64,000 nucleotides of DNA from Verrucomicrobiaceae bacterium (GCA_028293825.1 JAQGNY010000010.1:237151-301150); one strand, 5' to 3'. Numbered from the stretch's first letter, positions 8,434-46,293 are shown. Notes: generated by a model not told the origin, from the letters alone. Translations and numbers: made by a program.

Positions 8434-9138
8434 GTGCAGGTTTACACAACGGAAGACGAACAGGTTGAAGCGATCAAGCGTTGGTTTCTCGATTACGGAC
8501 GTTATGTTTTAACCGGAATATTAGTGGCTGCGGTAGCGGCATTCGGCGTTTACAGTTGGAAGCAGCGCCAGGCTCATCAAACAGCGGCAGCGTCTCTCGA
8601 ATACCAAAGCCTGCTGCAGGCCCTGCAACAGGTTGACGCCAATACCACCACGAGCAAAGAAGCGCTGACGACCGCGCGGCATTTTGCCGACACGCTGAAA
8701 AATGATTTCGCGGCGACCACATATGCGCAATTTGCTGCGTTATTCAAAGCCAAGCTCGCTGTGCAGGAAAACGATCTTGCCCAAGCCGAAAGCGAATTGA
8801 AGTGGGTGCTCGATAAAAAGCCGTCCACAGAAATAAAAGTGACGACGCAATTGCGTCTGGCGCGTGTGTTGAACGCTAAAGGCGATACAGCGGGCGCGTT
8901 AGCGCTGCTCGATGAAAAAGAAGCGGGCAGTTATGCCTCTGCTTTTGTGCAGCTAAAAGGCGACATTGCATTAGCTAAAGGCGATGTGAGTAGCGCCCGT
9001 ACCGAATATGAAAAAGCACAGGAATTGGAACGCAAAATGACTTCGCCGATTAACGATCCACTGCTCGAAATGAAATTGCGCGATCTGCAAGCTGGCGATA
9101 AATCTGCCGCCGATAAAAAAGCGCAGGGAGCGAGCTGA
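8434..9138 (+). CDS. yfgM: YfgM-family membrane-anchored TPR protein
   Basis: N-terminus MQVYTTEDEQVEAIKRWF followed by a TM, similar to E. coli YfgM. GTG start with an AAGGGG RBS. Located between hisS and bamB. Confidence 0.85.
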   Translation: MQVYTTEDEQVEAIKRWFLDYGRYVLTGILVAAVAAFGVYSWKQRQAHQTAAASLEYQSLLQALQQVDANTTTSKEALTTARHFADTLKNDFAATTYAQFAALFKAKLAVQENDLAQAESELKWVLDKKPSTEIKVTTQLRLARVLNAKGDTAGALALLDEKEAGSYASAFVQLKGDIALAKGDVSSARTEYEKAQELERKMTSPINDPLLEMKLRDLQAGDKSAADKKAQGAS

Positions 9139-10307
9139 TGTCGATGCAATTTATTGTTAGAAAAAGTTTTCGCGCCACGGTTTTATTGTTAGCGCTCGGT
9201 GCTATCGCCGCGTGCAGTTCGAACAAGGACAAAGATCAGGAGCCTGCACCGCTGCCGGATTTTAAAGCCGAGCGCTCGTTCGATAAATTGTGGAGCCATG
9301 GCGTTGGCAACGGCCAGGGCAAGCTATACAACCGACTCGCGCCGGTCGTTCACGATAAAAAAATATTCGCCGCAGCGGCGAATGGCAAAGTTGAAGCCTT
9401 CGATCGCATCTCGGGTAAATCGCTGTGGGATGCCGATATCGATGTGCCGGTATCAGGTGGCGTCGGTGTCGGCGGCGGTTTAGTGCTGGTGGCATCCGAA
9501 GACGGCCGGGTGTGGGCGCTCAATGAAGAGACCGGCAAGACACTGTGGAAAACTCAACTCGGCGGCCAGATTCTTTCCGCGCCGCAGAGCGATGGGACGT
9601 TTGTCGTCGCCCTTACCTTTAGCGGCGACGTAGTCGGACTCGATGCCAAAACTGGCGCCATCAAATGGGCTTATGCAGGCACCGCGCCGGTGCTCAGTTT
9701 GCGCGCCAGCAGCACGCCGATCATCGTCGACGGCACGGTGTTGGCAGGTCTTGCCAACGGCAAAGTTGTGGCGCTGGAAATTGCCAGTGGCCGCGCGTTG
9801 TGGGAAGTGCGTGTCGGCATCGGTCAAGGCAGCTCGGAAATTGAACGCCAGGTCGATGTCAGCGGCGATTTGTTAGTGGATGACGACACCTTGTACGCGG
9901 TTTCTTATCAAGGTCGTTTAACCGCGATTGAACTGCGCAGCGGTCGCCGTCTTTGGGAAAACAACGCATCCAGTTATGTTGGTTTGAGTACAGACGTCAG
10001 TAATATTTACGTCGTCGGCGCGACCGGCAACGTCACTGCATTTACCAAAAGCAGTCGCGGTGTGCGCTGGGAACAAACCGCTTTAGCGCGCCGGCAATTG
10101 AGCGGCTCTGCGGTGTTGGGTAATTACGTGGCCTTTGGCGATTACGCCGGCTATTTGCATTTGTTATCGCAGTTGGATGGACATTTTGTCGCGCGTACGC
10201 GTGTCGATAGCGATGGCCTGCGTGTAGCGCCATTGGTAGTCGACGATATTTTGTACGTGTACGGCAACAGCGGTGATCTTGAAGCTTACAAATTGGAGAA
10301 AAAATAG
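9138..10307 (+). CDS. bamB: Outer membrane protein assembly factor BamB (PQQ-like beta-propeller lipoprotein)
   Basis: Lipobox LGAIAAC and repeated G-x-LWK/W beta-propeller blades. The ATG overlaps the yfgM stop (TGATG). Confidence 0.93.
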   Translation: MSMQFIVRKSFRATVLLLALGAIAACSSNKDKDQEPAPLPDFKAERSFDKLWSHGVGNGQGKLYNRLAPVVHDKKIFAAAANGKVEAFDRISGKSLWDADIDVPVSGGVGVGGGLVLVASEDGRVWALNEETGKTLWKTQLGGQILSAPQSDGTFVVALTFSGDVVGLDAKTGAIKWAYAGTAPVLSLRASSTPIIVDGTVLAGLANGKVVALEIASGRALWEVRVGIGQGSSEIERQVDVSGDLLVDDDTLYAVSYQGRLTAIELRSGRRLWENNASSYVGLSTDVSNIYVVGATGNVTAFTKSSRGVRWEQTALARRQLSGSAVLGNYVAFGDYAGYLHLLSQLDGHFVARTRVDSDGLRVAPLVVDDILYVYGNSGDLEAYKLEKK

Positions 10308-16908: not shown

Positions 16909-16953
16909 TTTCGCTGGCTATACTTGGGTGTCGGTCAACGGAGGGCGAGCACC

Positions 16954-17388
16954 ATGCGCAAATTCGTCCGTCATCCCAGTTCGATTCCCATCGAGCTGTC
17001 TGTAGCGCGCGCAGCTATTCCCCGCGCGCGCTGTCGCAATATCAGCAACGGCGGTTTTGCCTGCACGGTCGACGAACCGCTGCCGGTGGGAAGTTCGGTG
17101 TGTTTGCGAATTCCCGTGATCTGGCCCGAGTATCGCGGCAACGGCGTCGTTGCCTGGTGCCAGCAAGTAACGCCTGCCTATGAGATCGGCATTCAATTTG
17201 TCGCGCAGGATTTATTTAAAACCAAGATGGTCGAGCAGCTGTGCCAGATCGAACAATACCGTATTCAATTGCAGTTAAACGAAGGGCGCACGCTAAGTAG
17301 TCAAGCGGCAGCGGAAGAATGGATTGCGTTGTACGCGAAAGATTTTTCCGATTCGTTTCTGGGTTCGGATGAAAGCGCTGGCAATTAA
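16954..17388 (+). CDS. PilZ-domain protein (putative c-di-GMP receptor)
   Basis: RKFVR (RxxxR) at the N-terminus and NISNGG (D/NxSxxG) about 30 residues later. GGAGGG RBS upstream of ATG 16954. Confidence 0.8.
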   Translation: MRKFVRHPSSIPIELSVARAAIPRARCRNISNGGFACTVDEPLPVGSSVCLRIPVIWPEYRGNGVVAWCQQVTPAYEIGIQFVAQDLFKTKMVEQLCQIEQYRIQLQLNEGRTLSSQAAAEEWIALYAKDFSDSFLGSDESAGN

Positions 17389-17412: not shown

Positions 17413-18666
17413 TTAATCGAGCGTTAAGCCTTTTTCCACATACGTCTCAACGCGCACGCCATGCGCCCCGTTCGGCAATACGTTTTTAATTAATTGCTCC
17501 GCCGCACCAGCCGCCGCTGTTTTTTCCAAATTCAAAATACGTTCCGGCATCGGTTGTTTAGCGCTGTCGCGTAACAGCATCACTTTCGGTAAATGGCGAT
17601 GGCGATGATTGGTGCTGATAACGATCCCGACTTCGCCGCTGTGTAATTCCACTACGCTGCCGGGCGGATACAGGCCGATGCAATCGATAAATTGCTGGCC
17701 CAATTTCGGATCGAATTTTTTGCCGGCTTCGTCGTGAATAATGCGCAATGCATTTAGCGACGACGCGCCTTTTTTATAAATACGATCGCTGGTAATCGCA
17801 TCATAAACATCGCACAGCGTAATGATGCGCGTGAAATCGGTAATATTGCCGGCTTTAATTTTGCGTGGATAACCGCTGCCATCCAAATTTTCATGATGGC
17901 TATACGCCACGTCGATGGCGCCATGATAAATATTGCGATGCGCGAGCAAAATATCGCGGCCTTGTTGCGCATGCTTCTGCATGATTTGAAATTCGTCTTC
18001 ATTCAGCCGCGTTTCTTTCAATAAAATTTCGAGTGGCGTTTGCATCTTGCCGATGTCGTGCAGCATGCCGGCTACGCCGAGTTTATTTAAATCCTCCTCG
18101 CTCGCGCCCAAATGACGACCAAACGCAATCGCTAATAACCCTACATTTAAACTGTGCTCGGATGTGTATTCATCCTTAGAGCGCAGCTTTGCCATCCACA
18201 ACATGGCGTCCGGGTTGCGCAAAATACTACGCACGCATTCCGAAACCGTCGCTTTTACTTCTTTAATATCGATGCCGCGCCCGAGCCGCACTTCATCCAT
18301 AAACGAGCGTGTTAACGCACGGGCATTTTGATGGGTGCTTTGCGCGGTGATCATTTCTTTCGCGCGCGGCGTGGTCGTGTTGTATTTATTGATGCGTTGC
18401 GACAGCGTTTCTTTTACCGCGCGTTCTTCGGCGGGCTGCCAGGTGTCTTCGCCGAGTTCGATATACACACTCTGGCAATATTTCGCTATTTCCTCGATAT
18501 CGGCGAGGCTGCGGATATGAAATCCCTGCAGAATAAACGGCGTTTCCAGCCACGGCCGATCCAGCTCGCTGACATACATGCCGACCTTCAAACCGGCGAC
18601 GGCAATTTGCATCACCCGTTTTTCTTTCAGGGTGCGGCCGGGGCGAACTACGGTTTTTTTATCCAT
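17413..18666 (-). CDS. HD-GYP domain c-di-GMP phosphodiesterase with DUF3391-like N-terminus
   Basis: LKVGMYVSELDRPW N-terminal domain, HDIGK and HHENLDGSGYP motifs. The start is uncertain (ATG 18666 or TTG 18696). Confidence 0.88.
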   Translation of the reverse strand: MDKKTVVRPGRTLKEKRVMQIAVAGLKVGMYVSELDRPWLETPFILQGFHIRSLADIEEIAKYCQSVYIELGEDTWQPAEERAVKETLSQRINKYNTTTPRAKEMITAQSTHQNARALTRSFMDEVRLGRGIDIKEVKATVSECVRSILRNPDAMLWMAKLRSKDEYTSEHSLNVGLLAIAFGRHLGASEEDLNKLGVAGMLHDIGKMQTPLEILLKETRLNEDEFQIMQKHAQQGRDILLAHRNIYHGAIDVAYSHHENLDGSGYPRKIKAGNITDFTRIITLCDVYDAITSDRIYKKGASSLNALRIIHDEAGKKFDPKLGQQFIDCIGLYPPGSVVELHSGEVGIVISTNHRHRHLPKVMLLRDSAKQPMPERILNLEKTAAAGAAEQLIKNVLPNGAHGVRVETYVEKGLTLD

Positions 18667-18818
18667 GCGGTTCGAATCTAATCGGTCGATGAGCAAATAT
18701 TGGCGCTTTAGTGTTCAGTGTAGGAGAGCAATGAGTTTTTGCATCCCCTGCATAAGGTGGCAGTTGTTAGCAGACTGGTAGAATTAAAAACAATTGATGA
18801 GGCCGGATAATAAAATAG

Positions 18819-20484: not shown

Positions 20485-20514
20485 ATTCTCGCGTCGTCAT
20501 CGCGACGCGAGAAT
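20485..20514. terminator. Bidirectional hairpin between convergent genes
   Basis: Perfect 12-bp stem ATTCTCGCGTCG / CGACGCGAGAAT with a 6-nt loop, flanked by T/A-rich sequence. Confidence 0.7.
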
Positions 20515-20538: not shown

Positions 20539-23500
20539 TCAGCCATTTTTATTTACTGACGCGGTGCGATCGAGTTTGCCCCAGCCGACCGCAGAGCCAT
20601 GCAGCGCGCTCAATACCGATTTCACAATCACGTAATACATGATTTGCCGATAGCCGAAGCGTTGTTGGATTAACCACCACAGCAATTTCCAATCTTCTTT
20701 TTTCTCCAGCGCAAATGCGAGCACACCGGCGCTGACATCGACCAAAGTAAACAAGGCGTAATACGCGCAGGTGATGGTGAGGTTGGTCGTATCGGCCTGG
20801 TTCTTATGCTGCACATAATCGATAACGGCGCTGATGATTTGCCACACCAGTGCGAGATCGACCAGCGGTGAAATCAATCCGAAAATAATTTGAAACAACC
20901 ACACCTGCGGCAATGCCACTAAACCGAGCATGCCGTAGCGCGCGCGAAAAACCACATCGCGGTATTTCCATAAACATTGCAGCGTGCCGAAGCTCCAGCG
21001 AAAGCGCTGCTTGGCCAGGCCTGCAAATGTTTCCGGCGCTTCCGTCCACGCAATGGCCTGATCGTCATAAATAACGCGATAACCTGCGGTTTGAATGCGC
21101 AGCGTTAAATCCTGATCTTCCGCCAGCGTATGTGTAGGAAAACCGCCGACTAAATCCAACGCTTCGCGACGCCATGCGCCGACTGCGCCCGGAACCACGG
21201 TGATGCTATTAATGGCCGCGAGCGCGCGGCGTTCGAGATTTTGCGCCGTGATGTATTCGAGCGCCTGCCAGCGCGTAACGGTATTAATACGGTTGCCGAC
21301 TTTGGCATTGCCGGCGACAGCGCCAACGCGTGCGTCGTCGAACCAGCGCACGAGTTTTGCAATGCAATCGGGCTCGAACTGGGTGTCCGCATCGAGTGCC
21401 ACCACAATCGCACCGGTGGCGAGTTGTAATCCCGCATTGATCGCGCGCGCCTTGCCGCTGTTTTGCAGCGTCAGTAATTGCACGCGTGGATCGTTGCCGA
21501 AAGATTCGCGCACCACAGCGGAAGTGTTATCGCTGGAGCCGTCGTCGATAACGATGACTTCGAGATTGCGATAATCAGATTGCAAAATGTGTTCGATCGA
21601 AGTCGCGATCACTTTGCTTTCGTTAAAGGCCGGAATTAAAACCGATACGCGCGCGGTGCTTTGCGCTGTTGTGGCAAAACTTTCATTGCGACGTTGGCGC
21701 GTGCGTTGCCACAAACCGAGCCCGCATAAAATAATCAGTCGCAAAAATCCCAGGCCGATAGCGAACATAAACAACCAATACAGCGCGTGATTGGCCCATC
21801 CGGTGATGTAAAAAACAATGCGGTCGGCAGTTTGGCCGAACGGCTGACGTTTCACCTTGGGCATCGCCTGCTCGTGGGTGAGGCCGGCCAATTGCGACAC
21901 GGGCACCAACTCGTAACCCTTCGCGCGGATGGCGTCGATCAACACCGGCAATGCTTCAACGGTGTTGGCACGATCGCCGCCGGCGTCGTGCAGTAATACG
22001 ATTTGGCCGCGCGTTTCCGGGTTTGGATCGCTGATTTGCGCCAGCGTGCGCTCGATAATCGTAGCGGCGGGTGGACGTTGCCAATCGTCGGGATCGACGC
22101 GCAAACCGACGGTGATGTAACCCATGTTTTGCGCGTGCTCGACTGGTATCAATTCGTCCGATGTGGTCGGTTCCGCATCGCCGAAATAGGGCGGGCGAAA
22201 AAATCGAATCGAGTGCCCGGTGATGGCTTCGAATAAACGCTGCGTGGCGTTCAATTCGATTGCAGTTAATTCACGCGGACTTTCGCCGAGGTTCGGATGC
22301 GTGAACGTGTGATTACCGACATCGTGGCCTTCATCGAAAATTCGCTGTACCAATTGCGGATTCGCCTGGCCGTTTTCGCCGATGATGAAAAAGCTCGCGT
22401 GTACTTTTTTCTGTTTCAAAATATCGAGAATTTTCGGCGTCCAGGTCGCGTCGGGGCCGTCGTCGAACGTCAATGCAATTTTGCCGGGCAGCGCGCCGAG
22501 ACGGCGAATCACATAGCTCGATGGCAGTGCCACGTAATTTTGTTCGTCGATTAAGCCGCTGTCTTCGTCCGTACCGAAAGTGCGCGCGCCGGCGCTTGGC
22601 AACGCCGCGATGCGCAGAATTTCACCGGTGCCTTCCATGTCGATATCGCTACCCATCGCGATTTGTTGCAGCGCTGCTGGCGCCGGAGCGTCGTAAGGTT
22701 GCCCCAATACCGAAGCAATCGACGGATCTTCCGAGCCCAAACGCCACAGCGCATAACCTGCTGGGCGATAGGTATCGGCGATATGAATTTGATTGAACGC
22801 GGTGACACCATCGAGCAGCCACACCTGATGCACGCTACCGTCGTCTTCTTCGTACGAGTAACGCGGATTCTGCGTAACCGGATCGAACTCGATGGTCGCC
22901 TCCGATTCGCGCGCGGTTAATACCGCTTCCTGAAACGTAATATCTTCCGCGGTTTTTCCCTGCGCCCAGTCGTAACCGTAATTGCCGATACAAATAATCG
23001 TGTGTTGCGGATCGAGCGTGCGCATGCGGCGGTGCAGCACTTTTTTAAACCAATCCTGCGATGCGATGCTGCCGGGCGTGCCTTCTTCCCAGTGCTCGTC
23101 ATACGCCATCAACATGATGTAATCGGTGGTCGCGGTGTACGCGGTGTAATCCCATTCGGCATCGTCGAACGGCGCCGCAATCGCCAGCGTCCAATGATGC
23201 GCGGCAAAACGATTTTTTATTTCGGCGAGAAACGTCAGAAAGTTTTTGTGCGCGGCCGGCGGCACATTTTCAAAATCCAACACCAATCCCTGAAATTGAT
23301 TGTCAGTGAGAAATTTTTCAATTTGCTGCAAACGCGCGGCGCGCAATTGCGGATCGGCAACCAAGCGCGCCAATGCAGCGCCATCCCAATTGCCGTCGCT
23401 GGCGTTTTGCCACATCGGCAAAATCGACGTGTTCGGCTTAGTGCGGCGAATTAAATCCAGCGCGCGTCGATCGATATCGAACTGCAGCGTTAGGTTTGGT

Positions 23501-23955
23501 TCGAGCGAATTAATCCAACCCGGCACCACCCAATCCAGCTGCGGCAACATGCGTTTCAACGACGGGTAACTGCTGTCGTCCCAGTTCACATAGAAGCCAA
23601 TTGCCAGCGGCTTACTGGTCGTGGCCGCGCTCGCGGCAATCGGCGCGGCGGCTTGCGTGATCGGCATTATTTCCGGGCGCGACGAACGCGGTACTCCGCG
23701 CTGATGGGTTTTCACACGCTTGGCGAGTTCGGAAATTTTTTGCAGCGAATGCGCCTGAATGGCTTTCTCGAACGGGATCGCATGTAGTTTTTTATCGCCG
23801 GCAATAATTAATGGCGCCAGCGATTGCACCGACAAAATAGTGGTGACGAAGGCAAACACTACGACCGTGGTGACGATGGCGAAAAACCAAGCCAGCCGCG
23901 ACATGCCGCGCGCGCGTTTACCGGAAGGATCAAAAAAAACGGATTTCTCAAGCAT
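20539..23955 (-). CDS. Fusion protein: TM anchor + GH18-like domain + CE4 (NodB) polysaccharide deacetylase + processive family-2 glycosyltransferase (PgaC/IcaA-like)
   Basis: A single uninterrupted frame (GTG 24003 or ATG 23955). GH18-like: FYVNWDD, LVLDFENV, MLMAYDEHW. CE4: TFDDGPD, HTFTHP, RPPYF, LLHD. GT2: DDGSSD, DADT, AEDQD, QRFRW. TM segments lie at the N-terminus, between CE4 and GT2, and at the C-terminus. Confidence 0.85.
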   Translation of the reverse strand: MLEKSVFFDPSGKRARGMSRLAWFFAIVTTVVVFAFVTTILSVQSLAPLIIAGDKKLHAIPFEKAIQAHSLQKISELAKRVKTHQRGVPRSSRPEIMPITQAAAPIAASAATTSKPLAIGFYVNWDDSSYPSLKRMLPQLDWVVPGWINSLEPNLTLQFDIDRRALDLIRRTKPNTSILPMWQNASDGNWDGAALARLVADPQLRAARLQQIEKFLTDNQFQGLVLDFENVPPAAHKNFLTFLAEIKNRFAAHHWTLAIAAPFDDAEWDYTAYTATTDYIMLMAYDEHWEEGTPGSIASQDWFKKVLHRRMRTLDPQHTIICIGNYGYDWAQGKTAEDITFQEAVLTARESEATIEFDPVTQNPRYSYEEDDGSVHQVWLLDGVTAFNQIHIADTYRPAGYALWRLGSEDPSIASVLGQPYDAPAPAALQQIAMGSDIDMEGTGEILRIAALPSAGARTFGTDEDSGLIDEQNYVALPSSYVIRRLGALPGKIALTFDDGPDATWTPKILDILKQKKVHASFFIIGENGQANPQLVQRIFDEGHDVGNHTFTHPNLGESPRELTAIELNATQRLFEAITGHSIRFFRPPYFGDAEPTTSDELIPVEHAQNMGYITVGLRVDPDDWQRPPAATIIERTLAQISDPNPETRGQIVLLHDAGGDRANTVEALPVLIDAIRAKGYELVPVSQLAGLTHEQAMPKVKRQPFGQTADRIVFYITGWANHALYWLFMFAIGLGFLRLIILCGLGLWQRTRQRRNESFATTAQSTARVSVLIPAFNESKVIATSIEHILQSDYRNLEVIVIDDGSSDNTSAVVRESFGNDPRVQLLTLQNSGKARAINAGLQLATGAIVVALDADTQFEPDCIAKLVRWFDDARVGAVAGNAKVGNRINTVTRWQALEYITAQNLERRALAAINSITVVPGAVGAWRREALDLVGGFPTHTLAEDQDLTLRIQTAGYRVIYDDQAIAWTEAPETFAGLAKQRFRWSFGTLQCLWKYRDVVFRARYGMLGLVALPQVWLFQIIFGLISPLVDLALVWQIISAVIDYVQHKNQADTTNLTITCAYYALFTLVDVSAGVLAFALEKKEDWKLLWWLIQQRFGYRQIMYYVIVKSVLSALHGSAVGWGKLDRTASVNKNG

Positions 23956-24205
23956 ATAAACGGCAATCAATTCTTGAGTGACGGTGAAGGAAATAACTGT
24001 CACCGCAGCGGCACCGCTAGGTCGCGGCGGGGCGCGTGGGCATAAAGCTTAATTGAGGCGCGGAAGTTTACGGGAAAGATTGCGCCTGTAGCCAGAATTA
24101 TGGGACAGGCTGCCTGACAATTCGATTAGTTGGCGGTCAACAATTGCACCCTAGTACGTTGTTGCGCGGCATAAATCGATACTTTGTACTGACTGTTTTT
24201 TGAAA

Positions 24206-24457
24206 TTATTTTTTTGCGGCAGCAGCGGCGTTGTCTTTTTTTCGATTGCTCAATAAGCCCTTAAAGAAAATAAACGGCAGGCGCGCGATGACCTTCCACG
24301 GCATCAATGCCACGGCTTCGGCCATGTCTTCGGGCTTGATATAAACGGCGGTATTCATCGAGCCCATCATTTTGCCTTTCATAACCAAGCTGTCGCCATC
24401 GAGGAAGAAGGATTTAACCTCCATCATTTCGATGCCTTCTTTACTGAGCATTTTCAT
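24206..24457 (-). CDS. Small hypothetical protein (83 aa)
   Basis: The ORF lies 68 nt downstream of the CrtI-like gene on the same strand. No recognisable motif and a weak RBS. Confidence 0.35.
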   Translation of the reverse strand: MKMLSKEGIEMMEVKSFFLDGDSLVMKGKMMGSMNTAVYIKPEDMAEAVALMPWKVIARLPFIFFKGLLSNRKKDNAAAAAKK

Positions 24458-35905: not shown

Positions 35906-36931
35906 ATGAAGAACACTGTTTTCTCTCGCCTGAAATTGCATGTTGCCGCCGCAGGCGTGGCATCGATGCTAATGACCAGCGCTTTTGCCGCCGACATTAC
36001 CGGTGCGGGCTCGACCTTCGTTTATCCGATCCTGTCGAAATGGTCGACCACCTATAACGCCAAGACCGGTAGCAAAATTAATTACCAATCGATCGGCTCC
36101 GGCGGCGGTATTGCGCAGATTAAAGCCGGCACCGTAACCTTCGGTGCCTCCGATAAACCATTGCCGCCGGAAGAGTTAAAAGAGGCTGGTCTGGTTCAAT
36201 TTCCTATCGTCATCGGTGGCGTCGTACCGGTGGTGAATTTGGAGGTCGCCAAAGCAGGCGACATGCGTTTTAGCGGCCCGGTATTGGCGGATATTTTTCT
36301 CGGCAAGATCGAGAAGTGGAACGATCCGGCGATTGCTGCACTTAATCCCAGCCTGAGCTTGCCCGACCAGAAAATCACCATCGTGCATCGCTCGGACGGC
36401 TCCGGCACCACGTTCAACTGGGTTAATTATTTGTCCAAAGTCAGTGACGAATGGAAGACCAAAGTGGGCGAGGGCACTTCGGTTAATTGGCCGGTCGGTG
36501 TAGGCGGTAAAGGCAATGAAGGCGTGGCTGCATACGTCAATCAGATCAAAGGTTCGATCGGTTATGTCGAGCTCGCTTATGCGATGCAAAACAAAATGAA
36601 ATACACCGAAGTTAAAAACAAAGCGGGCAATTTCGTCGATCCATCGCTGGCAACATTCCAGGCCGCTGCTGCAAACGCGGAATGGAAAGCGCAGGACTTC
36701 TTCGAAGTTATCACTGACGCTGCCGGTAAAGACTCTTGGCCAATCACCGCGTCGGTATTCGTGATGATGTACAAGCAGCCGAAAGAAGCGACGACTTCAG
36801 CCGATGCGTTGAAGTTTTTCAAATGGGCGCTGAACGAAGGCCAAGCTGACGCCAAAGAGCTGGACTATGTGGCATTGCCTGCTCCTCTCGTCAAACAAAT
36901 CGAAGCTTACTGGGCACAGAACATTAAGTAA
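35906..36931 (+). CDS. pstS: Phosphate ABC transporter substrate-binding protein PstS
   Basis: Signal peptide, ITGAGSTFVYP, YQSIGSGGG, RSDGSGTT motifs. Confidence 0.96.
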   Translation: MKNTVFSRLKLHVAAAGVASMLMTSAFAADITGAGSTFVYPILSKWSTTYNAKTGSKINYQSIGSGGGIAQIKAGTVTFGASDKPLPPEELKEAGLVQFPIVIGGVVPVVNLEVAKAGDMRFSGPVLADIFLGKIEKWNDPAIAALNPSLSLPDQKITIVHRSDGSGTTFNWVNYLSKVSDEWKTKVGEGTSVNWPVGVGGKGNEGVAAYVNQIKGSIGYVELAYAMQNKMKYTEVKNKAGNFVDPSLATFQAAAANAEWKAQDFFEVITDAAGKDSWPITASVFVMMYKQPKEATTSADALKFFKWALNEGQADAKELDYVALPAPLVKQIEAYWAQNIK

Positions 36932-36958
36932 GCCGCTTTTTATGTAGTTTCGTTGGGA

Positions 36959-36988
36959 GAAGCGACTGCCTTTCGGCGCAGCCGCTTC
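36959..36988 (+). terminator. Intercistronic hairpin between pstS and pstC (attenuator or mRNA-stabilising stem, no T-run)
   Basis: GAAGCGACTGCC-TTTC-GGCGCAGCCGCTTC forms an imperfect ~12-bp stem. Confidence 0.4.
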
Positions 36989-37008
36989 ATGCTTGTTGGG
37001 AGTCATTA

Positions 37009-37998
37009 ATGTCGCAGTCACACACTCTGCCGCTTAGCGATGCTTTGCCGCAGGATCCGCGCGAAGAGCGCGACCATTTTCACGATCGGTTATTTCGCTA
37101 CGCAGTGACCGGTTGCGCCACGTTCGTGCTTATCGCGTTGCTCGGCGCCGCGTTCTCCATGTTATGGGGCGGGCGCGAAGCGTTTTCCACGTTCGGGGTG
37201 CAGTTTTTATGGAGCGCCGATTGGGATGCGGTGCAGAAAAAATTCGGCGCGTTGGTGCCGATTTACGGCACGTTGGTTACCGCGTTAATCGCGATGATCA
37301 TTGCGGTGCCGGTCAGTTTTGGAATCGCTTTATTTTTAACGGAAATCGCACCGGCCTGGCTGCGCACGCCGGTAGCGGCGGCGATCGAATTACTCGCAGG
37401 GATTCCATCGATCATTTACGGCATGTGGGGTTTATTCGTGTTCGTGCCGTTTATGGCAGAGCACGTCGATCCTTGGCTGGATGAACATCTCGGCCCGCTC
37501 GCCATTGTCGGCCCGTTATTTCAGGGCGCGCCAATCGGCTTGGGCATGCTCACCGCGGGCATCGTGCTCGGCATCATGGTGATTCCATTTATTTCATCGG
37601 TAACGCGCGAAGTGTTCGTCACGGTACCGGTGCATCTGAAGGAATCCGCTTACGCAGTCGGCAATACGACGTGGGAAGTCGTGTGGGACATCGTGCTGCC
37701 GTATACGCGCTCTGCTGTTGTCGGCGGTATATTTTTAGGTCTGGGTCGCGCGCTGGGCGAAACCATGGCGGTGACGTTCGTACTCGGCAATTCACACCGC
37801 TTGACCGCTTCGTTATTGGAGCCGGGCAATTCGATTGCCGCGACCATCGCCAATGAGTTCACCGAAGCAGATTCGTCGGTGTATTTGTCCTCGCTGATTG
37901 CGCTGGGCTTTCTGCTGTTCATCGTCACCTTCATCGTGCTGGCAGTGGCGCGTTTGATGTTGAGCCAACTGGCACGGCGCGGCGGAACCACGTCATGA
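37009..37998 (+). CDS. pstC: Phosphate ABC transporter permease PstC
   Basis: Multi-TM permease with an EAA-like loop (LKESAYAVGNTTWEVVW). Its stop overlaps the pstA start (ATGA). Confidence 0.95.
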   Translation: MSQSHTLPLSDALPQDPREERDHFHDRLFRYAVTGCATFVLIALLGAAFSMLWGGREAFSTFGVQFLWSADWDAVQKKFGALVPIYGTLVTALIAMIIAVPVSFGIALFLTEIAPAWLRTPVAAAIELLAGIPSIIYGMWGLFVFVPFMAEHVDPWLDEHLGPLAIVGPLFQGAPIGLGMLTAGIVLGIMVIPFISSVTREVFVTVPVHLKESAYAVGNTTWEVVWDIVLPYTRSAVVGGIFLGLGRALGETMAVTFVLGNSHRLTASLLEPGNSIAATIANEFTEADSSVYLSSLIALGFLLFIVTFIVLAVARLMLSQLARRGGTTS

Positions 37999-38873
37999 AT
38001 AACGCCAAGGCCCATTTAAAGAGCGACAACATGAGCATGTGGATGCGTCGTCAATTCACCGATTATCTGGCCAAGGTGCTGGGTACCGCCGCGACCTTGT
38101 TCGGGCTGTTCTGGCTGGCGTGGATCTTGTGGACCACGGTCAGCAAAGGCCTGCCGGCGCTGAAGTGGGAGCTGTTCACGCAAATGACGCCACCGCCCGG
38201 CGCCGATGGCGGTCTGCTGAACGCGTTTGCCGGCAGCATCATCATGAGTGGTCTGGCGGTTTTGATCGGCACGCCGATCGGCATCGCGGCGGGCACTTAT
38301 CTGTCCGAATACGCGCGCTATTCGAAATTCGGCGCCACCATTCGCTTCGTCAACGACATTCTTTTATCGGCGCCGTCGATCGTTATCGGTTTGTTCGTGT
38401 ACGAATTGATGGTGCGGCAGATGGGCCATTTTTCTGCGCTGGCCGGTGCGGTGGCGCTGTCATTTATCGTGTTGCCGGTAGTCGTTCGCACCACCGATGA
38501 AATGCTGCAATTAATTCCATCGACGATGCGCGAAGCGGCGTTAGCGCTGGGCGTACCGCAGTGGAAAGTGGTGCGTCAGGTGCTTTATCGCGCGTCGATG
38601 TCGGGCATCGTGACTGGCGTGTTATTGGCGCTGGCGCGGATTTCCGGCGAAACCGCGCCACTGCTGTTCACCGCGCTCAACAATCAATATTGGGCGAGCA
38701 GCCTGCTCGATCCGATGGCCAATGTGCCGGTCGTCATTTTTCAATATGCGATGAGTCCGTATGAGTTTTGGCATGCGCTCGCGTGGGCTGGCGCCTTCGT
38801 GGTGACGATGTTCGTGCTGTTACTCGGTATCGCGTCGCGCTGGCTTCTTCTTAAGGGAAAAAATCATGAATGA
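37995..38873 (+). CDS. pstA: Phosphate ABC transporter permease PstA
   Basis: Permease with [16 protein letters not shown] loop; operon context. Confidence 0.95.
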
Positions 38874-39684
38874 CTTAGCTGCAGTAAAGCAGAAGAACGT
38901 GGCAGCCGAGGCGGGTTCCATCGCCACTGCCGATGCGAAAATTACCGCGCGCAATTTGAATTTTTATTACGGCAGTTCGCACGCGGTGAAGGGCGTTAAT
39001 TTGTCGATTCACAATAAGCGCGTAACCGCTTTGATTGGACCTTCGGGCTGCGGGAAATCGACGCTGCTGCGTATTTTCAATCGCATGTATGCGATCTATC
39101 CGAAGCAGCGCGCGGACGGCGAGTTGTTATTGGATGGCGTCAATGTGCTCGATGGCAATTATTCGATCAATCGCTTGCGCACCAAGGTCGGTATGGTTTT
39201 CCAAAAACCGGTGCCGTTCCCGATGTCGATTTACGACAACGTCGCCTACGCGATTCGGCATTACGAAAAATTATCGCGCGGCGAAATGGATGGCCGCGTG
39301 GAAGAAGCATTGCGCAATGCCGCGCTGTGGGACGAAGTTAAAAATAAACTCAATCAAAGCGCATTGGGTTTATCGGGCGGGCAACAGCAGCGTTTGTGTA
39401 TTGCCCGCGCCATCGCATTAAAACCCGAAGTATTACTGTTGGACGAACCGACATCGGCGCTCGATCCGATTTCCACCGCCAAAGTGGAGCAATTAATCGG
39501 CGAGTTGAAAACGCAGTACACGGTATTGATCGTTACGCACAACATGCAGCAAGCCGCGCGCGTATCGGACACCACCGGCTTTATGTTTATGGGTGAGCTG
39601 ATCGAATTCGGCGCGACCGAAGATATGTTTACGCATCCAAAAAATCAAAAAACAACAGACTACATTACCGGGCGTTTCGGTTAA
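38866..39684 (+). CDS. pstB: Phosphate ABC transporter ATP-binding protein PstB
   Basis: Walker [10 protein letters not shown], signature LSGGQQQRL, Walker [12 protein letters not shown]. Confidence 0.97.
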
Positions 39685-39714
39685 CACCGCGCTGCCATTT
39701 CGGAGAAATTTTTT

Positions 39715-40443
39715 ATGACGCCTCCCCATATCGTCAAAGCTTTCGATCAAGAATTACAAACGCTCACTAGCAGCATCGGTGCCATGGGCGATTTTGCCGG
39801 CGCGCAATTTTCGGATTCCGTGCAAGCCTTACTGCGCGGCGATTTAGTGCTGGCGCAGCGCGTTATCGATCAGGATCGCCAACTCGATGCGTTACGCCGC
39901 GATCTTTCCGCAGCGGCCGCTTCGGTGATTGCGCGCAGACAACCGATGGCGACGGATCTCGACGAAGTGTTATCGGATTTTCGCATCGTCGAAGAATTGG
40001 AGCGCATCGGCGATCTGGCGAAAAATATTGCCAAGCGCGCGACAGCGGTAAGCAGCGCTAATTTTCCGCTAGAAATCGTGGAAATGCTGGAGCGTTTATC
40101 CGCTCTCGCCGCCGCGTTGCTGAAGGGCGCGCTCGAAACTTATGTAACGCGCGATGCCGAACAAGCGATTGTGGTGCGGCAGCAGGATGAGGAGATCGAT
40201 GAATTACACACTTCGATTTTTCGCGATATCGTATCGCGCATGACGGCCGATCAGTCGCAGGTTATCGATTTTGTGCATTTATTATTCTGCGCAAAAAATA
40301 TCGAACGCATCGGCGATCACGCAACGCATATTGCAGAGGCCGCCTATTTCACCGTTACCGGCCAACGGCCGCCGCTGGAAAGACGACGGCTCGACCAAAG
40401 CAGTTTAACGAAAAGTGCTGACACTGTTTTTAACGTGGAATAA
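39715..40443 (+). CDS. phoU: Phosphate signalling complex protein PhoU
   Basis: Duplicated PhoU repeats (ELERIGDLAKNIAKR, NIERIGDHATHIAE). Confidence 0.95.
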   Translation: MTPPHIVKAFDQELQTLTSSIGAMGDFAGAQFSDSVQALLRGDLVLAQRVIDQDRQLDALRRDLSAAAASVIARRQPMATDLDEVLSDFRIVEELERIGDLAKNIAKRATAVSSANFPLEIVEMLERLSALAAALLKGALETYVTRDAEQAIVVRQQDEEIDELHTSIFRDIVSRMTADQSQVIDFVHLLFCAKNIERIGDHATHIAEAAYFTVTGQRPPLERRRLDQSSLTKSADTVFNVE

Positions 40444-40896: not shown

Positions 40897-40987
40897 TGGC
40901 GGTGAGAGAGGGGTTCGAACCCTCGATACGCTATTAACGTATACACGCTTTCCAGGCGTGCTCCTTCAACCGCTCGGACACCTCACC
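40897..40987 (-). tRNA. tRNA-Ser (anticodon GGA), with long variable arm and encoded CCA
   Basis: The reverse complement reads GGTGAGGTGTCCGAGCGGTTGAAGGAGCACGCCTGGAAAGCGTG...GAGGGTTCGAACCCCTCTCTCACCGCCA. It has a 7-bp acceptor stem, a CT-GGA-AA anticodon loop and a GGTTCGAAC T-loop, and is near-identical in layout to E. coli serX/serW-type tRNA. Confidence 0.95.
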
Positions 40988-42131: not shown

Positions 42132-42776
42132 ATGAAAATTACCATCGTGCCGGTCACGGCATTTCAACAAAATTGCAGCATTTTGATTTGCGAAGCGACC
42201 AAGCGCGCAGCTCTCGTCGATCCAGGTGGCGATATGCCGCAATTGCGCGCCGCATTGACGCAACTCGGCGTCACTGTCGAAAAGGTTTTCCTGACCCACG
42301 GTCACATGGATCACTGCGGTGCGGCGGATTTGGTGCGCAAAGAATTCGGCGTGCCGATCGAAGGGCCGCATCGCGAAGATAAATTCTGGATCGATCAATT
42401 AGCGGCATCGTCGAAAATGTTTGGATTGCCGCCAGCCGAAGCATTCGAGCCGGACCGTTGGCTTGAGGATGGCGACACTGTGACGTTCGGTGAACAAACG
42501 CTGGAAGTCGTATTTTGTCCGGGCCATACGCCGGGCCATGTGGTGTTTTTTCACCGCGGTGAAAAGGTCGCGTTGGTGGGCGATGTATTGTTTCAAGGCT
42601 CGATCGGGCGCACCGATTTTCCGCGCAGCAACCACGACGATTTGATTCATTCGATTCGCGAAAAATTATGGCCGCTCGGCGACGATGTAGTGTTCGTGCC
42701 AGGTCATGGTCCGACTTCAACATTCGGCGCGGAGCGACGCACCAATCCGTTTGTTGCCGATAAACGCTTCGGCTAA
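42132..42776 (+). CDS. MBL-fold metallo-hydrolase (YcbL/glyoxalase II-like)
   Basis: LTHGHMDHCG (HxHxDH), CPGHTPGH, GDVLFQGSIGRTDFP, PGHGP. Confidence 0.9.
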   Translation: MKITIVPVTAFQQNCSILICEATKRAALVDPGGDMPQLRAALTQLGVTVEKVFLTHGHMDHCGAADLVRKEFGVPIEGPHREDKFWIDQLAASSKMFGLPPAEAFEPDRWLEDGDTVTFGEQTLEVVFCPGHTPGHVVFFHRGEKVALVGDVLFQGSIGRTDFPRSNHDDLIHSIREKLWPLGDDVVFVPGHGPTSTFGAERRTNPFVADKRFG

Positions 42777-42821
42777 TTTTTTATTTCCTCTTTTCGACAA
42801 TTTTTATAAGGGCAGTGACTC

Positions 42822-43193
42822 ATGTTGTTGTATTGGCTCGACGTGCGCTTGGCGCGTGTTGGTTTAATCGTGGCGGCGCTCGCCATCACAACACTGGCGC
42901 TAATGCCGGGGCCGGACGTGCCGATCACCACAAGCTGGGACAAGCTCGATCACTGGACGGCTTTTTTCACGCTGGCATTTTTAGCCAATCATTCCTTTCC
43001 GCGCCTGCCGTTTTGGCGCGCCATAGCGTTGGCGTTAGTGGCGTACGGCATCGGTATCGAAATCGCGCAATCGTTCACGCCGACGCGTGACGCCGATCCG
43101 CTCGACGTAGTGGCGGATTCGATAGGCATTGTTATTTACGGTGCAGTATTGCAACTGCGTTTGGCTCTGTTTAAGCCCCAGCTCGCCGAATAG
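42822..43193 (+). CDS. VanZ-like family membrane protein
   Basis: WDKLDHWTAFFTLAFL and GIEIAQSFTPTRDADPLDVVADSIG are typical VanZ signatures; about 4 TM. Confidence 0.65.
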   Translation: MLLYWLDVRLARVGLIVAALAITTLALMPGPDVPITTSWDKLDHWTAFFTLAFLANHSFPRLPFWRAIALALVAYGIGIEIAQSFTPTRDADPLDVVADSIGIVIYGAVLQLRLALFKPQLAE

Positions 43194-43210
43194 CTTTCGG
43201 GCGGCGCCAC

Positions 43211-43672
43211 ATGAAAAATCTACTGATCGTCTATCACTCGCAATCCGGTACCAATGCGCGCTTGATGCAGGCGGCGTATGACGGCGCGTTGCAGGAAAGC
43301 GAGGTCGAGACCCGGTTGCTCCGTGCCAGCGAGGCCAATACCGAAGATTTATTGTGGGCTGATGCAGTAATTTTTGGTTCACCGGAAAATTTTGGTTATC
43401 TCTCCGGCGGTCTAACAGATTTCCTTGCGCGCACGTTTTATCCGTATCAACACCATGCGCCGAATCGCAACTTAGCGTATGCGTTAGTTGTCGGCACCGG
43501 CAACGATGGCAGCGGCGCAATACGACAATTACAGCGGATTGTGCGCGGTTATCCAATGCGCGAAGCCGCCGAAGCCATTATTGTGCGCGGCGAAATCCAA
43601 GCGGCCGATTTATTGCGCTGCGAGGAATTAGGCTTAACGATGGCAGCGGGCCTCGCCCTCGGTATTTTTTAA
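43211..43672 (+). CDS. Flavodoxin-like fold protein (NAD(P)H-dependent oxidoreductase family)
   Basis: LLIVYHSQSGTNARL and VIFGSPENFGYLSGG are flavodoxin-like FMN-binding loops. Confidence 0.7.
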   Translation: MKNLLIVYHSQSGTNARLMQAAYDGALQESEVETRLLRASEANTEDLLWADAVIFGSPENFGYLSGGLTDFLARTFYPYQHHAPNRNLAYALVVGTGNDGSGAIRQLQRIVRGYPMREAAEAIIVRGEIQAADLLRCEELGLTMAAGLALGIF

Positions 43673-43896
43673 AACGCTTTAATTGAATTGCGTTGTTTCT
43701 ATTTTGAACAATTAAACCTTTATCGCGCGATTTACACCTATGCGTTTGAAAATACTCGAATCCACATCCATACTCACTTCAGTTTTTCGTATTGCACTCC
43801 TGCTTTGATTTTACTTTTTGCTATCTCCCCATCAGTGACGGTCGGGTTTGTTATTCGGGATTAATGTTGTTCTCGCCGTAACTCGAAGGCCTTTAT

Positions 43897-46293
43897 TTGC
43901 CCGCTTTTATTTCACGCCAGCGGCTCACTTCGCTTCTGATTCCGGTGTTGGTGTTGTCGGTTTTAATTTACGAAGTGCTGCACACGCCGATTTATACCGA
44001 AGGCGAACTCAGTGCTATGCGCGAGAAAGCGGTTGCACTCGCCACGTCGGGCGAATTCGATTCGGCACTGGAGCAATTGCGCGCGCTGTCCGAAGTGGCG
44101 CCCGACAATCGCGGCGTGTGGGGTGATTATTTATCCGTGTTGGTACGTGCGCAGCGCGAGCGCGAGGCATTAGTTTTATTCGCTGCTAATTCGCAGCGCG
44201 CATTACCCGATTACACGTTGGCCGATTTATTTGCCGCCGCATTGAGGCAAAAAGATTTCGCGCTCGCGCGACAGCTGGCTGATCGTGAAATTGCGCAAAG
44301 TGCCGAGCCGCAAAAAATTACCGAGGCGCGCGCCGATGCATTGGCCGCCGCTGGATTTGCTACAGCGCCATCGACGACTTTTGCCACGGCCACTGAATTT
44401 GCCGAACCTGAAGCAGCTCTTGAATCACAACCAGCCGTCGAATCGAAATCGGCCGCCGAATCTGCGGTTGGGGTGGCGGCGCCAGTAAGAGCTGCGCCCC
44501 GGTTGCATCGGTCGTCCGCGGCGCCATCGACACGACCTGCGCGATTCTCGAATCAATCAGCAGTAATACCAGCGTCCGCGCCGCGTGCTGCCGTAACCGA
44601 TACCGCTGCCGAGTTCGGTGAGCGTGCCGGTCTTGCCGTCCGCGAAGCCGAAGATGCGCCGGCCAGCGAGCGGGTCGTGCGCGCGCAAATGGCCCTCGCA
44701 GCGCTCGATCAATACGCTCAAGCGCTTGCGGACAATTACGGCTCGGCAGCACAAATCCGCAACGAACAACTCGACCGCGTGCGCGCACTGACGCTGGCCG
44801 GCCGCCTCGATGAAGCCGCCACCGTATTCGAAACGTTGGGCGATACGGACCAGTTGCCGATTTATGGCTTGTTGAACGGCGCCGACCTTTATGTGCGTCG
44901 CCAGCAACCGGCGCGCGCGCAGGCGTTGCTCGATATCGCATTGAGGCGAGAGCCAAACAATCGCAACGCGTTGGTGGCAAGCTTTCGCAATCAGCTGGAC
45001 GGCGAACATTATCGCGCTGCCGCAACGACGCTAGGGCAATTGCGAGACACGGCGACTACATCTGCCGATCGGCGCAACAGCCGCTTGCTGACCGCGCAAC
45101 TCGCCGCATACACCGATCATTTGCAAGCCGCGCAGACCGAACTGGAAGCGTTGCGTAGCGAGGAGCCCGATGCTGCCGATGTGCATCTACGGTTGGCGCA
45201 AATTTATCGCTGGCGTGGCTGGCCCCGCCAGGCGCTCGACGAATACCGCCATGCTGAAAATTTGTCTGCCGATCCGGCCTCCACGCAGTTCGGCGAAATC
45301 GCCGCGCTCAACGATGCGCACGAGTATGCGGCAGCGCGTGCACGACTCGATTCGGCGGCAACGCATTCGCCTAATCATCCCGATTTAAAGGCCGCGCTAA
45401 TAGAGCGACGCCAACAGCAGCAGTGGCAGTACAGCGCGCAGGTTCAAGCCGGCAAATCGGATGCGAGCCCAGTTACCGGCACCGGCGATCTCGCCTTTGA
45501 TCAGCGGCTTACATCGCCAGTTTTGAACGATCAATTTCGCGTATTCGCACATCAGCATTACGACTGGGCCAAGTTTCCCGAAGGCAATGGCAGCGCTGAT
45601 CGATTCGGACTTGGCGCTGATTATCGTTCGGCGCAATTCGATACCGCTGTCGAGCTGACGCGCCGAGCGCCCGGCAGTGAAACGGGTGGTTCGCTCAGCG
45701 GCGAATGGCACGCGAATGATCGACTGAGCGTGTTCGGCGAAGCGCAAATCGATTCCTCTGCCGTGCCGTTGCGAGCATTGAATGCCGGTATCGACGGGGA
45801 TTCGGCGACTGTCGGCGCGCGCTATCGCGTCGACGAAAACCGCCAGGCGCAGATTGCGTATTCGCGGGCCGAATTCAGCGACGACAACAATCGCGATGCC
45901 GTCAGCGCCAGTTACAAACAAACCTTATTGCGCGAAGGTCGCCAGCAAATCGGCGTGATCGGCCAGCTCTATTACGGGCGCAATTCGGCCGGCGACAACG
46001 TGCCGTATTTCAATCCGGCGCGCGAAACCGCCGCCACCGCCAATCTCGAATATTCAGGCCCGCTGTGGCAGCGCGAAACGACGTTCTGGTCGCAGCGCGT
46101 ATCGGTCGGCGCTGGTGTGTACGACCAACAGAATTACGGCAGTCATCCGATTTGGGATGTGGAATACGAGCAGCGTTGGCGCTTCAGTCCGGCCTTCGAA
46201 ATCAACTACGGCCTGCTGCATCGCAGTCGCGTTTACGACGGGGGACGCGAAGGTTACAGCGCGTTGTTCGGCGGCGTGAATCGGCGCTTTTAG
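43897..46293 (+). CDS. pgaA: PgaA-like poly-beta-1,6-N-acetylglucosamine export porin (TPR periplasmic domain + C-terminal beta-barrel)
   Basis: 798 aa with a hydrophobic N-terminal signal-like segment, TPR-like helices, alternating beta-strand pattern and a terminal Phe (...GGVNRRF). Lies immediately upstream of pgaC. The TTG start is uncertain. Confidence 0.78.
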   Translation: MPAFISRQRLTSLLIPVLVLSVLIYEVLHTPIYTEGELSAMREKAVALATSGEFDSALEQLRALSEVAPDNRGVWGDYLSVLVRAQREREALVLFAANSQRALPDYTLADLFAAALRQKDFALARQLADREIAQSAEPQKITEARADALAAAGFATAPSTTFATATEFAEPEAALESQPAVESKSAAESAVGVAAPVRAAPRLHRSSAAPSTRPARFSNQSAVIPASAPRAAVTDTAAEFGERAGLAVREAEDAPASERVVRAQMALAALDQYAQALADNYGSAAQIRNEQLDRVRALTLAGRLDEAATVFETLGDTDQLPIYGLLNGADLYVRRQQPARAQALLDIALRREPNNRNALVASFRNQLDGEHYRAAATTLGQLRDTATTSADRRNSRLLTAQLAAYTDHLQAAQTELEALRSEEPDAADVHLRLAQIYRWRGWPRQALDEYRHAENLSADPASTQFGEIAALNDAHEYAAARARLDSAATHSPNHPDLKAALIERRQQQQWQYSAQVQAGKSDASPVTGTGDLAFDQRLTSPVLNDQFRVFAHQHYDWAKFPEGNGSADRFGLGADYRSAQFDTAVELTRRAPGSETGGSLSGEWHANDRLSVFGEAQIDSSAVPLRALNAGIDGDSATVGARYRVDENRQAQIAYSRAEFSDDNNRDAVSASYKQTLLREGRQQIGVIGQLYYGRNSAGDNVPYFNPARETAATANLEYSGPLWQRETTFWSQRVSVGAGVYDQQNYGSHPIWDVEYEQRWRFSPAFEINYGLLHRSRVYDGGREGYSALFGGVNRRF

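Follow-up and report, generated by a model that had tools for sequence, protein, structure and literature searches.

A predicted GH18–CE4–GT2 fusion protein of a large bacterial family and its candidate role in the synthesis of an N-acetylglucosamine polymer

Architecture of the gene and its product

The DNA analyzed here is a stretch of 64,000 nucleotides (nt) from a Verrucomicrobiaceae bacterium (GCA_028293825.1 JAQGNY010000010.1:237151-301150), which we call the window; our subject is a minus-strand gene in the window, the three-domain gene, whose product contains, from N- to C-terminus, a first transmembrane helix (TM1), a GH18 module, a beta-rich linker, a CE4/NodB module, a second transmembrane helix (TM2), a processive GT2 module, and a C-terminal bundle of transmembrane helices (Table 1). 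The frame 20539-24003 translates into 1154 codons in which the sole stop is the terminal one. Homologs have 1118–1189 amino acids (aa), align over 98–100% of the query, and have N-termini that start MxxKPVFFDPTGRRAR; because these homologs of like length begin at the equivalent of MLEKSVFFDP, the true start is most likely the ATG at 23955 (MLEKSVFFDPSGKRAR), giving a protein of 1138 aa. Residue numbers are counted from this ATG; those in an earlier note on this DNA are 16 higher. The GC content of the gene equals that of the window.

The earlier note, made from the sequence alone, had described one uninterrupted frame that encodes these three enzymatic domains in this order. The single terminal stop and the equal length of the homologs agree with this description, as do the Pfam matches, which fall in the nucleotide ranges that it gave for the domains (those in Table 1). 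The hidden Markov model search that it proposed places Glyco_hydro_18, Polysacc_deac_1, and Glyco_tranf_2_3 all above the Pfam cutoffs, and every motif that it quoted is present in the translation (LAIGFYVNWDD, GLVLDFENV, and MLMAYDEHW in GH18; TFDDGPD, HTFTHP, RPPYF, and LLHD in CE4; DDGSSD, DAD, AEDQD, and QRFRW in GT2). No LysM or other wall-binding module was found in the protein by the Pfam scan.

Conservation was scored in two sets, that is, 32 close homologs (57–85% identity) and 65 more distant members (31–58% identity) whose alignment spans several phyla and includes a Bacillus plasmid copy. Ahead of TM1, the short N-terminal peptide has a motif that is kept across phyla (F7 in 63/65, D9 in 61/65, and R14 in 63/65 distant members); this peptide may be a regulatory or gating element.

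Table 1. Coordinates of the three-domain gene, its parts, and the surrounding features. Coordinates are those of the window unless a related locus (L number) is named; pLDDT, predicted local distance difference test score.
Feature	Coordinates	Strand	Details
Three-domain protein, coding sequence	20539..23955	-	1138 aa from ATG 23955; mechanical open reading frame reaches GTG 24003
N-terminal peptide, residues 1-16, predicted cytoplasmic	23908..23955	-	motif F7-x-D9-P-x-G12-x-R14; low pLDDT
TM1, signal-anchor helix, ~residues 20-43, N-terminus predicted inside	23827..23898	-	hydropathy peak 2.44; model helix 13-42
GH18 (beta/alpha)8 barrel, residues 115-414, YdhD/SleL/YaaH type	22714..23613	-	D227-F-E229, Y285-D286, W404
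Beta-strand-rich linker between GH18 and CE4, ~residues 435-487	22495..22653	-	model strands 438-487, pLDDT ~83-88
CE4/NodB-homology deacetylase, residues 489-689	21889..22491	-	all five motifs
TM2, ~residues 715-749, predicted to bring the chain back to the cytoplasm	21709..21813	-	hydropathy peak 2.38; long model helix 705-761
GT2 processive beta-glycan synthase domain, residues 767-994	20974..21657	-	DDGSSD 804-809, DAD 855-857, AED 945-947, QRFRW 983-987
C-terminal membrane helices, ~residues 1007-1119, presumed polysaccharide channel	20599..20937	-	hydropathy and model helices
13-bp palindromic hairpin	20485..20514	.	between convergent stops of the three-domain gene and an NmrA-like gene
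83-aa open reading frame	24206-24457		upstream of the three-domain gene
BamB-like gene	9138-10307		beside der
PilZ gene	16924-17388	+	convergent with the HD-GYP gene
HD-GYP phosphodiesterase gene with DUF3391	17413-18696	-	convergent with the PilZ gene
~21.5-kb segment	19400-40987		acyltransferase gene to 3' end of tRNA-Ser(GGA)
pstSCAB-phoU	35906-40443		within the ~21.5-kb segment
tRNA-Ser(GGA)	40897-40987	-	3' end closes the ~21.5-kb segment
pgaA	43897-46293	+	362 bits vs 366.65 cutoff; PgaA barrel domain E 4.6e-60
pgaC	46303-47580	+	588.5 bits on PgaC_IcaA model
pgaD	47577-48032	+	94.7 bits; 4-nt overlap with pgaC; the window's only pgaD
213-216-aa protein, window copy	48157-48807	+	
213-216-aa protein, related loci	L084 14290-14931; L085 6541-7188; L086 14333-14980; L087 14496-15140		
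PMT_2-like GT-C neighbor	L046 8326-9804; L054 8252-9694; L036 8534-10129		9 further acidobacterial loci
MprF neighbors	L043 3682-6237; L044 7220-9871; L053 2973-5528; L030 7006-9648; L047 16223-18817		and others

The three enzymatic modules

The GH18 module is matched by Pfam PF00704 (Glyco_hydro_18) over residues 120–407 (E 7.4e-17; 62.4 bits vs a cutoff of 29.6), the match covering profile positions 4–315 of 317; NCBIfam has no model for this N-terminal domain. Searches of the Protein Data Bank (PDB) by sequence return 3cz8 (7e-22), 5jh8, and 4s3j, and Foldseek superimposes the barrel on 5jh8, a Chromobacterium chitinase (template modeling score 0.85, root-mean-square deviation 2.5), as well as on SleL (4s3j) and YdhD (3cz8). 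The nearest relatives in both sequence and fold are the Bacillus YdhD/SleL/YaaH proteins, with which the barrel shares the G-x-x-x-D-F-E and MAYD motifs; these relatives are soluble, sporulation-associated proteins without a synthase fusion, and the substrate of SleL and YaaH is the peptidoglycan of the spore cortex. The classical DxxDxDxE motif is shortened to D-x-E, with Q222 and V225 in place of the first two Asp residues; the same shortening is found in the YdhD/SleL group. D227-F-E229, Y285-D286, and W404 are invariant in all 32 close homologs and are kept in 59–63 of the 65 distant members (D227 in 63, E229 in 60, D286 in 63). By these residues, the GH18 module is predicted to be catalytically competent in the window protein and usually, not always, in the family.

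The linker that follows has no Pfam match and was assigned to no family. The CE4 module, as judged from its sequence, is of the canonical NodB/PgdA type. Its motifs are TFDDG (496–500), H549-x-x-T-H553, R587-P-P589, D621/D624-W625, and LLHD (654–657, with H656); Pfam PF01522 (Polysacc_deac_1) matches residues 492–590 (E 6.8e-33; 113.7 bits), and the PdaB and NodB models of NCBIfam match below cutoff, NodB ranking among the best CE4 models (133.6 bits vs 240). The best PDB match by sequence is PgdA (5o6y, 3e-32) and by Foldseek a Bacillus cereus peptidoglycan deacetylase (4l1g). TFDDGP, H549/H553, R587/P589, W625, and LLHD are invariant in the 32 close homologs, and most of the CE4 residues are present in 65/65 distant members (D621 in 63, W625 in 64). 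When residues 115–700 were compared with Escherichia coli PgaB by BLASTP, the best E-value was 0.11 and the alignment covered the TFDDG stretch only, so the region is not PgaB-like by this measure.

The GT2 module is matched by Pfam Glyco_tranf_2_3 over residues 769–990 (E 3.3e-36), and Foldseek aligns this half of the protein with hyaluronan synthase (HAS) and cellulose synthase (BcsA) over 450–530 columns; no structure of PgaC or MatB was among the results of the PDB searches. From hydropathy and the structural model (see below), the GT domain lies between one transmembrane helix on its N-terminal side and about four helices on its C-terminal side, a layout that would suit a translocation channel. 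DDGS-D, DAD, ED, and QRFRW are invariant in the close homologs; in the distant members the motif residues are present in 65/65 except for D804 (64), A856 (62), A945 (64), and F985 (56). Taking CE4 and GT2 together, nearly all of the catalytic residues are present in 65/65 members and the lowest count is 62/65.

The earlier note had called this synthase PgaC/IcaA/NodC-like. The resemblance stands: the best NCBIfam model is PgaC_IcaA (201.6 bits, positions 23–370 of 407), and the domain shares 32% identity with E. coli PgaC and 35% with a separate PgaC that the window also encodes. Orthology does not, as the protein scores far below the PgaC, NodC, and NodB equivalog cutoffs. Because the fused GT2 scores 201.6 and 115.9 bits on the PgaC_IcaA and NodC models, whereas the window's true PgaC scores 588.5 and 70.1, the fused GT2 is a separate lineage within the superfamily that includes PgaC, not a PgaC ortholog. 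We also considered these scores as a guide to the linkage of the product and rejected them, since they leave the linkage undecided.

Membrane topology and predicted fold

Hydropathy peaks fall inside residues 17–54, 723–751, 1007–1049, and 1061–1085. TM1 is flanked by four K/R within residues 1–19, and TM2 is followed by a K/R-rich stop-transfer segment with five K/R in residues 742–770. Because of the hydropathy and this positive-inside placement of K/R, the GH18 and CE4 modules are placed outside and the GT2 module inside, that is, GH18 and CE4 are predicted to be periplasmic and the N-terminus and GT2 cytoplasmic; this prediction is well supported and is the out/out/in topology that the earlier note had proposed.

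An AlphaFold (AF2) model was built on 32 homologs. Its mean pLDDT is 76, rising to ~90 over the GH18 barrel; its predicted template modeling score (pTM) is 0.53, at which the geometry between domains is unreliable. The C-terminal model helices span residues 1009–1049, 1057–1083, 1089–1098, and 1102–1119. In Foldseek searches of the PDB, the GH18, CE4, and GT2 parts are each matched, all with E ≤1e-13; for the N-terminal domain, for which the earlier note had suggested a model and a fold search, the structures returned are GH18 barrels.

Distribution of the family

A protein search listed 120 matches, and the figures from it refer to the matches listed: all 120 have 1118–1189 aa and the same three Pfam domains, they come from, e.g., Rhodanobacter, Dyella, Frateuria, Kaistia, and Hyphomicrobium, and their usual label is ‘glycosyltransferase’. 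The nearest family members are 57–85% identical to the window protein; an exact-sequence look-up of the window protein gave no match. A scan of one genome per species confirmed at least 592 loci, the best 80 of which were used for taxonomy and genome neighborhoods. Among these 80 are Alphaproteobacteria (Sphingomonas, Novosphingobium, Caulobacter, Phenylobacterium, Methylobacterium, Rhizobium), Gammaproteobacteria, Acidobacteriota, Gemmatimonadota, Verrucomicrobiota, a metagenome-assembled genome (MAG) of Armatimonadales, and one cyanobacterium. With the N-terminal 470 residues as query, 469 clusters (50% identity) are retrieved at E ≤1e-30, and many of the top matches have 1100–1190 aa.

Near-full-length copies are also found in 30 plasmid records, including those of Sphingobium, Bacillus mycoides, Deinococcus, and Prevotella; the B. 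mycoides plasmid protein has all three Pfam domains. On plasmid NZ_CP139710.1 (Sulfitobacter sp. OXR-159; 42712-45525), the match covers two genes annotated as polysaccharide deacetylase family and glycosyltransferase proteins, which could be either a natural split or a frameshift. A record labeled as an actinobacterium, Arthrobacter sp. TPD3018 (NZ_QDFQ01000004.1; locus L023), contains a full-length gene at 47% identity, about the level of the Sphingomonas copies; the cause may be horizontal transfer, mislabeling, or contamination of the assembly.

The architecture has been in print since 2012, when a genome paper listed ‘GH18-CE4-GT2’ in Acetivibrio cellulolyticus (ZP_09465738) without comment. 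The uncharacterized GH18-CE4-GT2 proteins (A. cellulolyticus, Rhodanobacter, Sphingomonas, B. mycoides) have the same domain order, ~1120–1190 aa, and the same catalytic and N-terminal motifs; we see no structural difference between them and the window protein, and databases call them glycosyltransferase or polysaccharide deacetylase. Bundalovic-Torma et al. (2020) described divergent Gram-negative PgaB-like deacetylases that are fused to GT domains in loci without pgaA and pgaD, and called such fusions experimentally unverified; Bacillus anthracis BA3480 (927 aa, GT2 plus deacetylase) has been tabulated without a function. Two other leads were dropped: B. anthracis BA5436 is a 245-aa peptidoglycan deacetylase, not a GT2–deacetylase fusion, and a 2016 paper on bacterial chitin synthases deals with a different, eukaryote-derived family.

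No characterized three-domain member was found in the full-text literature searched, which is no proof of absence; the earlier note, too, knew of no characterized three-way fusion. The rarity that it implied does not survive the distribution, which takes in many phyla and both diderms and monoderms. GH18-CE4-GT2 proteins thus form a very large, cross-phylum, apparently uncharacterized family, and the window protein is one member of it, not a unique invention.

Comparison with characterized systems

The closest characterized system is Streptomyces MatB, which we compared by its published description. In MatB an extracellular CE4 is joined to an intracellular GT2 by one transmembrane helix, and the protein makes poly-N-acetylglucosamine (PNAG) (PMC5972031); the earlier note had cited it as a CE4-GT2 fusion, in agreement with that description. 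Residues 489–1138 of the window protein have exactly this CE4–helix–GT2 layout in one chain. Further likenesses are a PgaC-like GT2, a CE4 nearest to PgdA/NodB, and a polymer of N-acetylglucosamine (GlcNAc) that is made and modified without PgaA and PgaD (PMC5972031). MatB differs in having neither GH18 nor an N-terminal anchor helix ahead of the periplasmic part, in working with MatA and adjoining an IcaC-like gene, and in belonging to a monoderm actinobacterium. The window protein can be described as a synthase-deacetylase of the MatB kind that has GH18 as an extra module.

The E. coli PgaABCD and staphylococcal IcaADBC systems for PNAG have a GT2 of the same superfamily and the same sequence of events (polymerization, translocation, then partial deacetylation and hydrolysis outside the cytoplasm); they differ in dividing these roles among separate proteins, with PgaB combining CE4 and GH153, PgaC of E. 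coli depending on PgaD and c-di-GMP, and PgaA providing the outer-membrane exit. Rhizobial NodC and NodB likewise pair a GT2 that makes beta-1,4 GlcNAc chains with a canonical NodB-type CE4, although as two separate proteins; NodB acts in the cytoplasm, whereas the window CE4 is predicted to be periplasmic, and the NodC/NodB products are short oligomers.

Genome neighborhood

The hairpin just beyond the three-domain gene is likely a bidirectional terminator, in which case there is no gene downstream in an operon. Upstream lie an 83-aa open reading frame (ORF), which has no counterpart in the 80 related loci and no Pfam match, then genes for an FAD oxidoreductase and a TetR regulator. Clustering of the ORFs from the 80 related loci and the window identified no family-wide conserved partner gene, and no gene for a PgaD/IcaD-like partner lies beside the three-domain gene or in the 80 loci. 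The commonest neighbor is a PMT_2-like multi-pass GT-C protein, whose gene immediately adjoins the three-domain gene in 12 Acidobacteriota loci. Just upstream of the three-domain gene in locus L081 (6828-9589) are genes for a GT2-GtrA protein and for a GT-C protein of TMEM260-like type. An MprF-type lysyl-phosphatidylglycerol synthase is encoded beside or near the three-domain gene in eight loci from the Gemmatimonadota and Sphingomonas-type Alphaproteobacteria; its proximity in two distant groups suggests that both proteins may help to make the envelope more positively charged.

In the window, the three-domain gene and the NmrA-like gene open a ~21.5-kb segment that runs from an acyltransferase gene to a tRNA gene; a related Spongiibacteraceae MAG (L084) has only a CrcB gene at that point. 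Besides pstSCAB-phoU, the segment contains ordinary metabolic genes, and its ~26–36 kb part has a lower GC content (45–49%). A scan that covered part of the ORFs in the segment detected no integrase; from this, the ordinary gene content, and a gene GC equal to that of the window, we reject a classical mobile island. Before the segment, the genes for a PilZ protein and an HD-GYP phosphodiesterase are part of a block (AraC-type regulator, ketoacyl synthase, PilZ, HD-GYP, acyltransferase) that also occurs in L084. We rejected these two as c-di-GMP partners of the three-domain protein, because L084 keeps the block where the three-domain gene is missing; this is conserved synteny. A BamB-like gene beside der, assigned by sequence and position, fits a diderm.

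The window also contains a pga operon without pgaB: pgaA and pgaC are separated by 10 nt, pgaD follows, and with E. coli PgaB as the query no PgaB-like sequence was found anywhere in the 64-kb window. The relatives of the window PgaA are named Spongiibacteraceae, and the pgaA-pgaC-pgaD order recurs without pgaB in four relatives (L084–L087). By these PgaA relatives and the gene order in common, the source organism groups with Spongiibacteraceae-like Gammaproteobacteria. All copies of the pgaB-less cassette also encode, after pgaD, a protein of 213–216 aa, irrespective of differences in the flanking genes; the window copy ends in a PEP-CTERM sorting signal, and the protein may be a fourth component of the pgaB-less system. 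According to the earlier note, the three-domain gene has no outer-membrane porin gene next to it; this holds within ~10 kb, but the context that it gave was incomplete, because the PgaA porin gene is only 20 kb away.

Proposed function and alternatives

We propose, with a probability of about 65%, that the gene product is a synthase-dependent machine that makes a GlcNAc-based polymer on its own. The cytoplasmic GT2 would polymerize GlcNAc from UDP-GlcNAc, and the growing chain would be threaded through a channel formed by the protein's own membrane helices. On the periplasmic side, GH18 and CE4 would be tethered at the membrane between TM1 and TM2; CE4 would strip part of the N-acetyl groups, yielding a cationic chain, and GH18 would cut at residues that are still acetylated, so that the length of the chain is set or the chain is released. 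A GlcNAc-type polymer, also proposed by the earlier note, is the probable substrate because three families that need a 2-acetamido sugar share one chain, each with intact catalytic residues. By analogy, the PgaC-like GT2 and the MatB precedent favor a beta-1,6 linkage, although the linkage as such is undecidable here. The autonomy of the machine is suggested by the 80 loci, in which the gene has no obligatory conserved partner, and by the Bacillus copy, which in a monoderm needs no further export step.

Several points weigh against this proposal. No family member has been studied, and polymer, linkage, and activities stay inferred; the GT2 is far under the equivalog cutoffs (201.6 vs 422.3 for TIGR03937; 115.9 vs 550 for NodC), the catalytic Glu of GH18 is missing in 5/65 members, and the model does not reliably place the domains relative to one another. 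To our knowledge, GH18 enzymes act only on beta-1,4 GlcNAc bonds and none cuts beta-1,6 GlcNAc; if so, either PNAG is not the polymer made or GH18 has another substrate. Among solved structures, those nearest to the two periplasmic domains belong to enzymes active on peptidoglycan (SleL, YaaH, and YdhD for GH18; PgdA for CE4). Finally, a diderm needs an outer-membrane exit, and none is linked to the three-domain gene.

An alternative is that the product is a set of short, partly deacetylated chito-oligosaccharides, either periplasmic or released as small molecules, for which GH18 would be the chain-length cutter in a manner like periplasmic glucan synthesis. In the 80 loci, which come from diderm phyla, the gene has no conserved neighbor for an outer-membrane porin or other export function, GH18 would be located directly at the presumed channel exit, and the recurrent neighbors (MprF in 8 loci, GT-C/PMT_2-like proteins in 12) are envelope-modifying. 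We consider such a product unlikely, as the GT2 has the full processive signature together with C-terminal channel helices and the Bacillus fusion needs no outer-membrane step.

The relatives of the periplasmic domains also allow a division of labor in which GT2 makes a polymer and GH18 and CE4 act on peptidoglycan, opening a path for the glycan or anchoring it. GH18 includes peptidoglycan endo-N-acetylglucosaminidases, the closest solved relatives of the barrel include the spore-cortex hydrolases SleL and YaaH as well as YdhD, and those of CE4 are peptidoglycan GlcNAc deacetylases. We regard this division as improbable: synthase systems usually pair hydrolase and modifier with their own polymer (e.g., BcsZ, PelA, and PgaB), the protein lacks a wall-binding module in the Pfam scan, and the MatB CE4 is also nearest to PgdA, yet MatAB makes PNAG (PMC5972031).

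The pgaB-less operon in the same window raises the further idea that the fused protein supplies deacetylase and hydrolase in trans to PgaACD, its own product or that of PgaCD leaving through PgaA. In E. coli, PgaB is required for export, and the window has pgaA, pgaC, and pgaD, a mere 10-nt gap where pgaB would be, and no PgaB-like sequence. However, at least two of the four relatives with the pgaB-less cassette have no three-domain gene within 10 kb, and pgaA/pgaD are near none of the 80 other three-domain loci; since cassette and fusion gene are each found where the other is not nearby, a role in trans is improbable for the family in general. The genome may have a pgaB outside the window, and cleavage of beta-1,6 linkages is not known for GH18, so we give this idea very little weight. 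That the GH18-like module is a noncatalytic binding or guiding domain, like chitinase-like lectins or the role first assigned to the C-terminal domain of PgaB, is the least probable reading of all, for although Q222 and V225 replace two Asp residues and a few members lack the Glu, the residues D227, E229, Y285, D286, and W404 are present, are kept in 59–63/65 members, and the YdhD/SleL-type relatives have the same shortened D-x-E.

Significance

If the proposed machine operates as described, one gene does what PNAG systems split among three or more proteins; the family would then provide a compact model for the coupling of polysaccharide synthesis, translocation, deacetylation, and cleavage, as well as a module that could readily be transferred to produce GlcNAc polymers with partial deacetylation. 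The pairing of a GH18 of beta-1,4 type with a PgaC-like synthase is a conflict whose resolution would reveal either that bacteria make a chitosan-like polymer or that GH18 has a specificity not known before. As a tentative extension, one that we think possible but doubtful, the family might be a one-protein bacterial chitin/chitosan factory, in which GT2 makes beta-1,4 poly-GlcNAc, CE4 converts it to a chitosan-like polycation, and GH18 trims it; if this were true, a class of polymers ascribed to fungi and animals would be made widely among the bacteria of soil and water, each time from a single gene. The family abounds in bacteria that live in soil, in fresh water, or in association with plants, and one characterized member would annotate thousands of genes.

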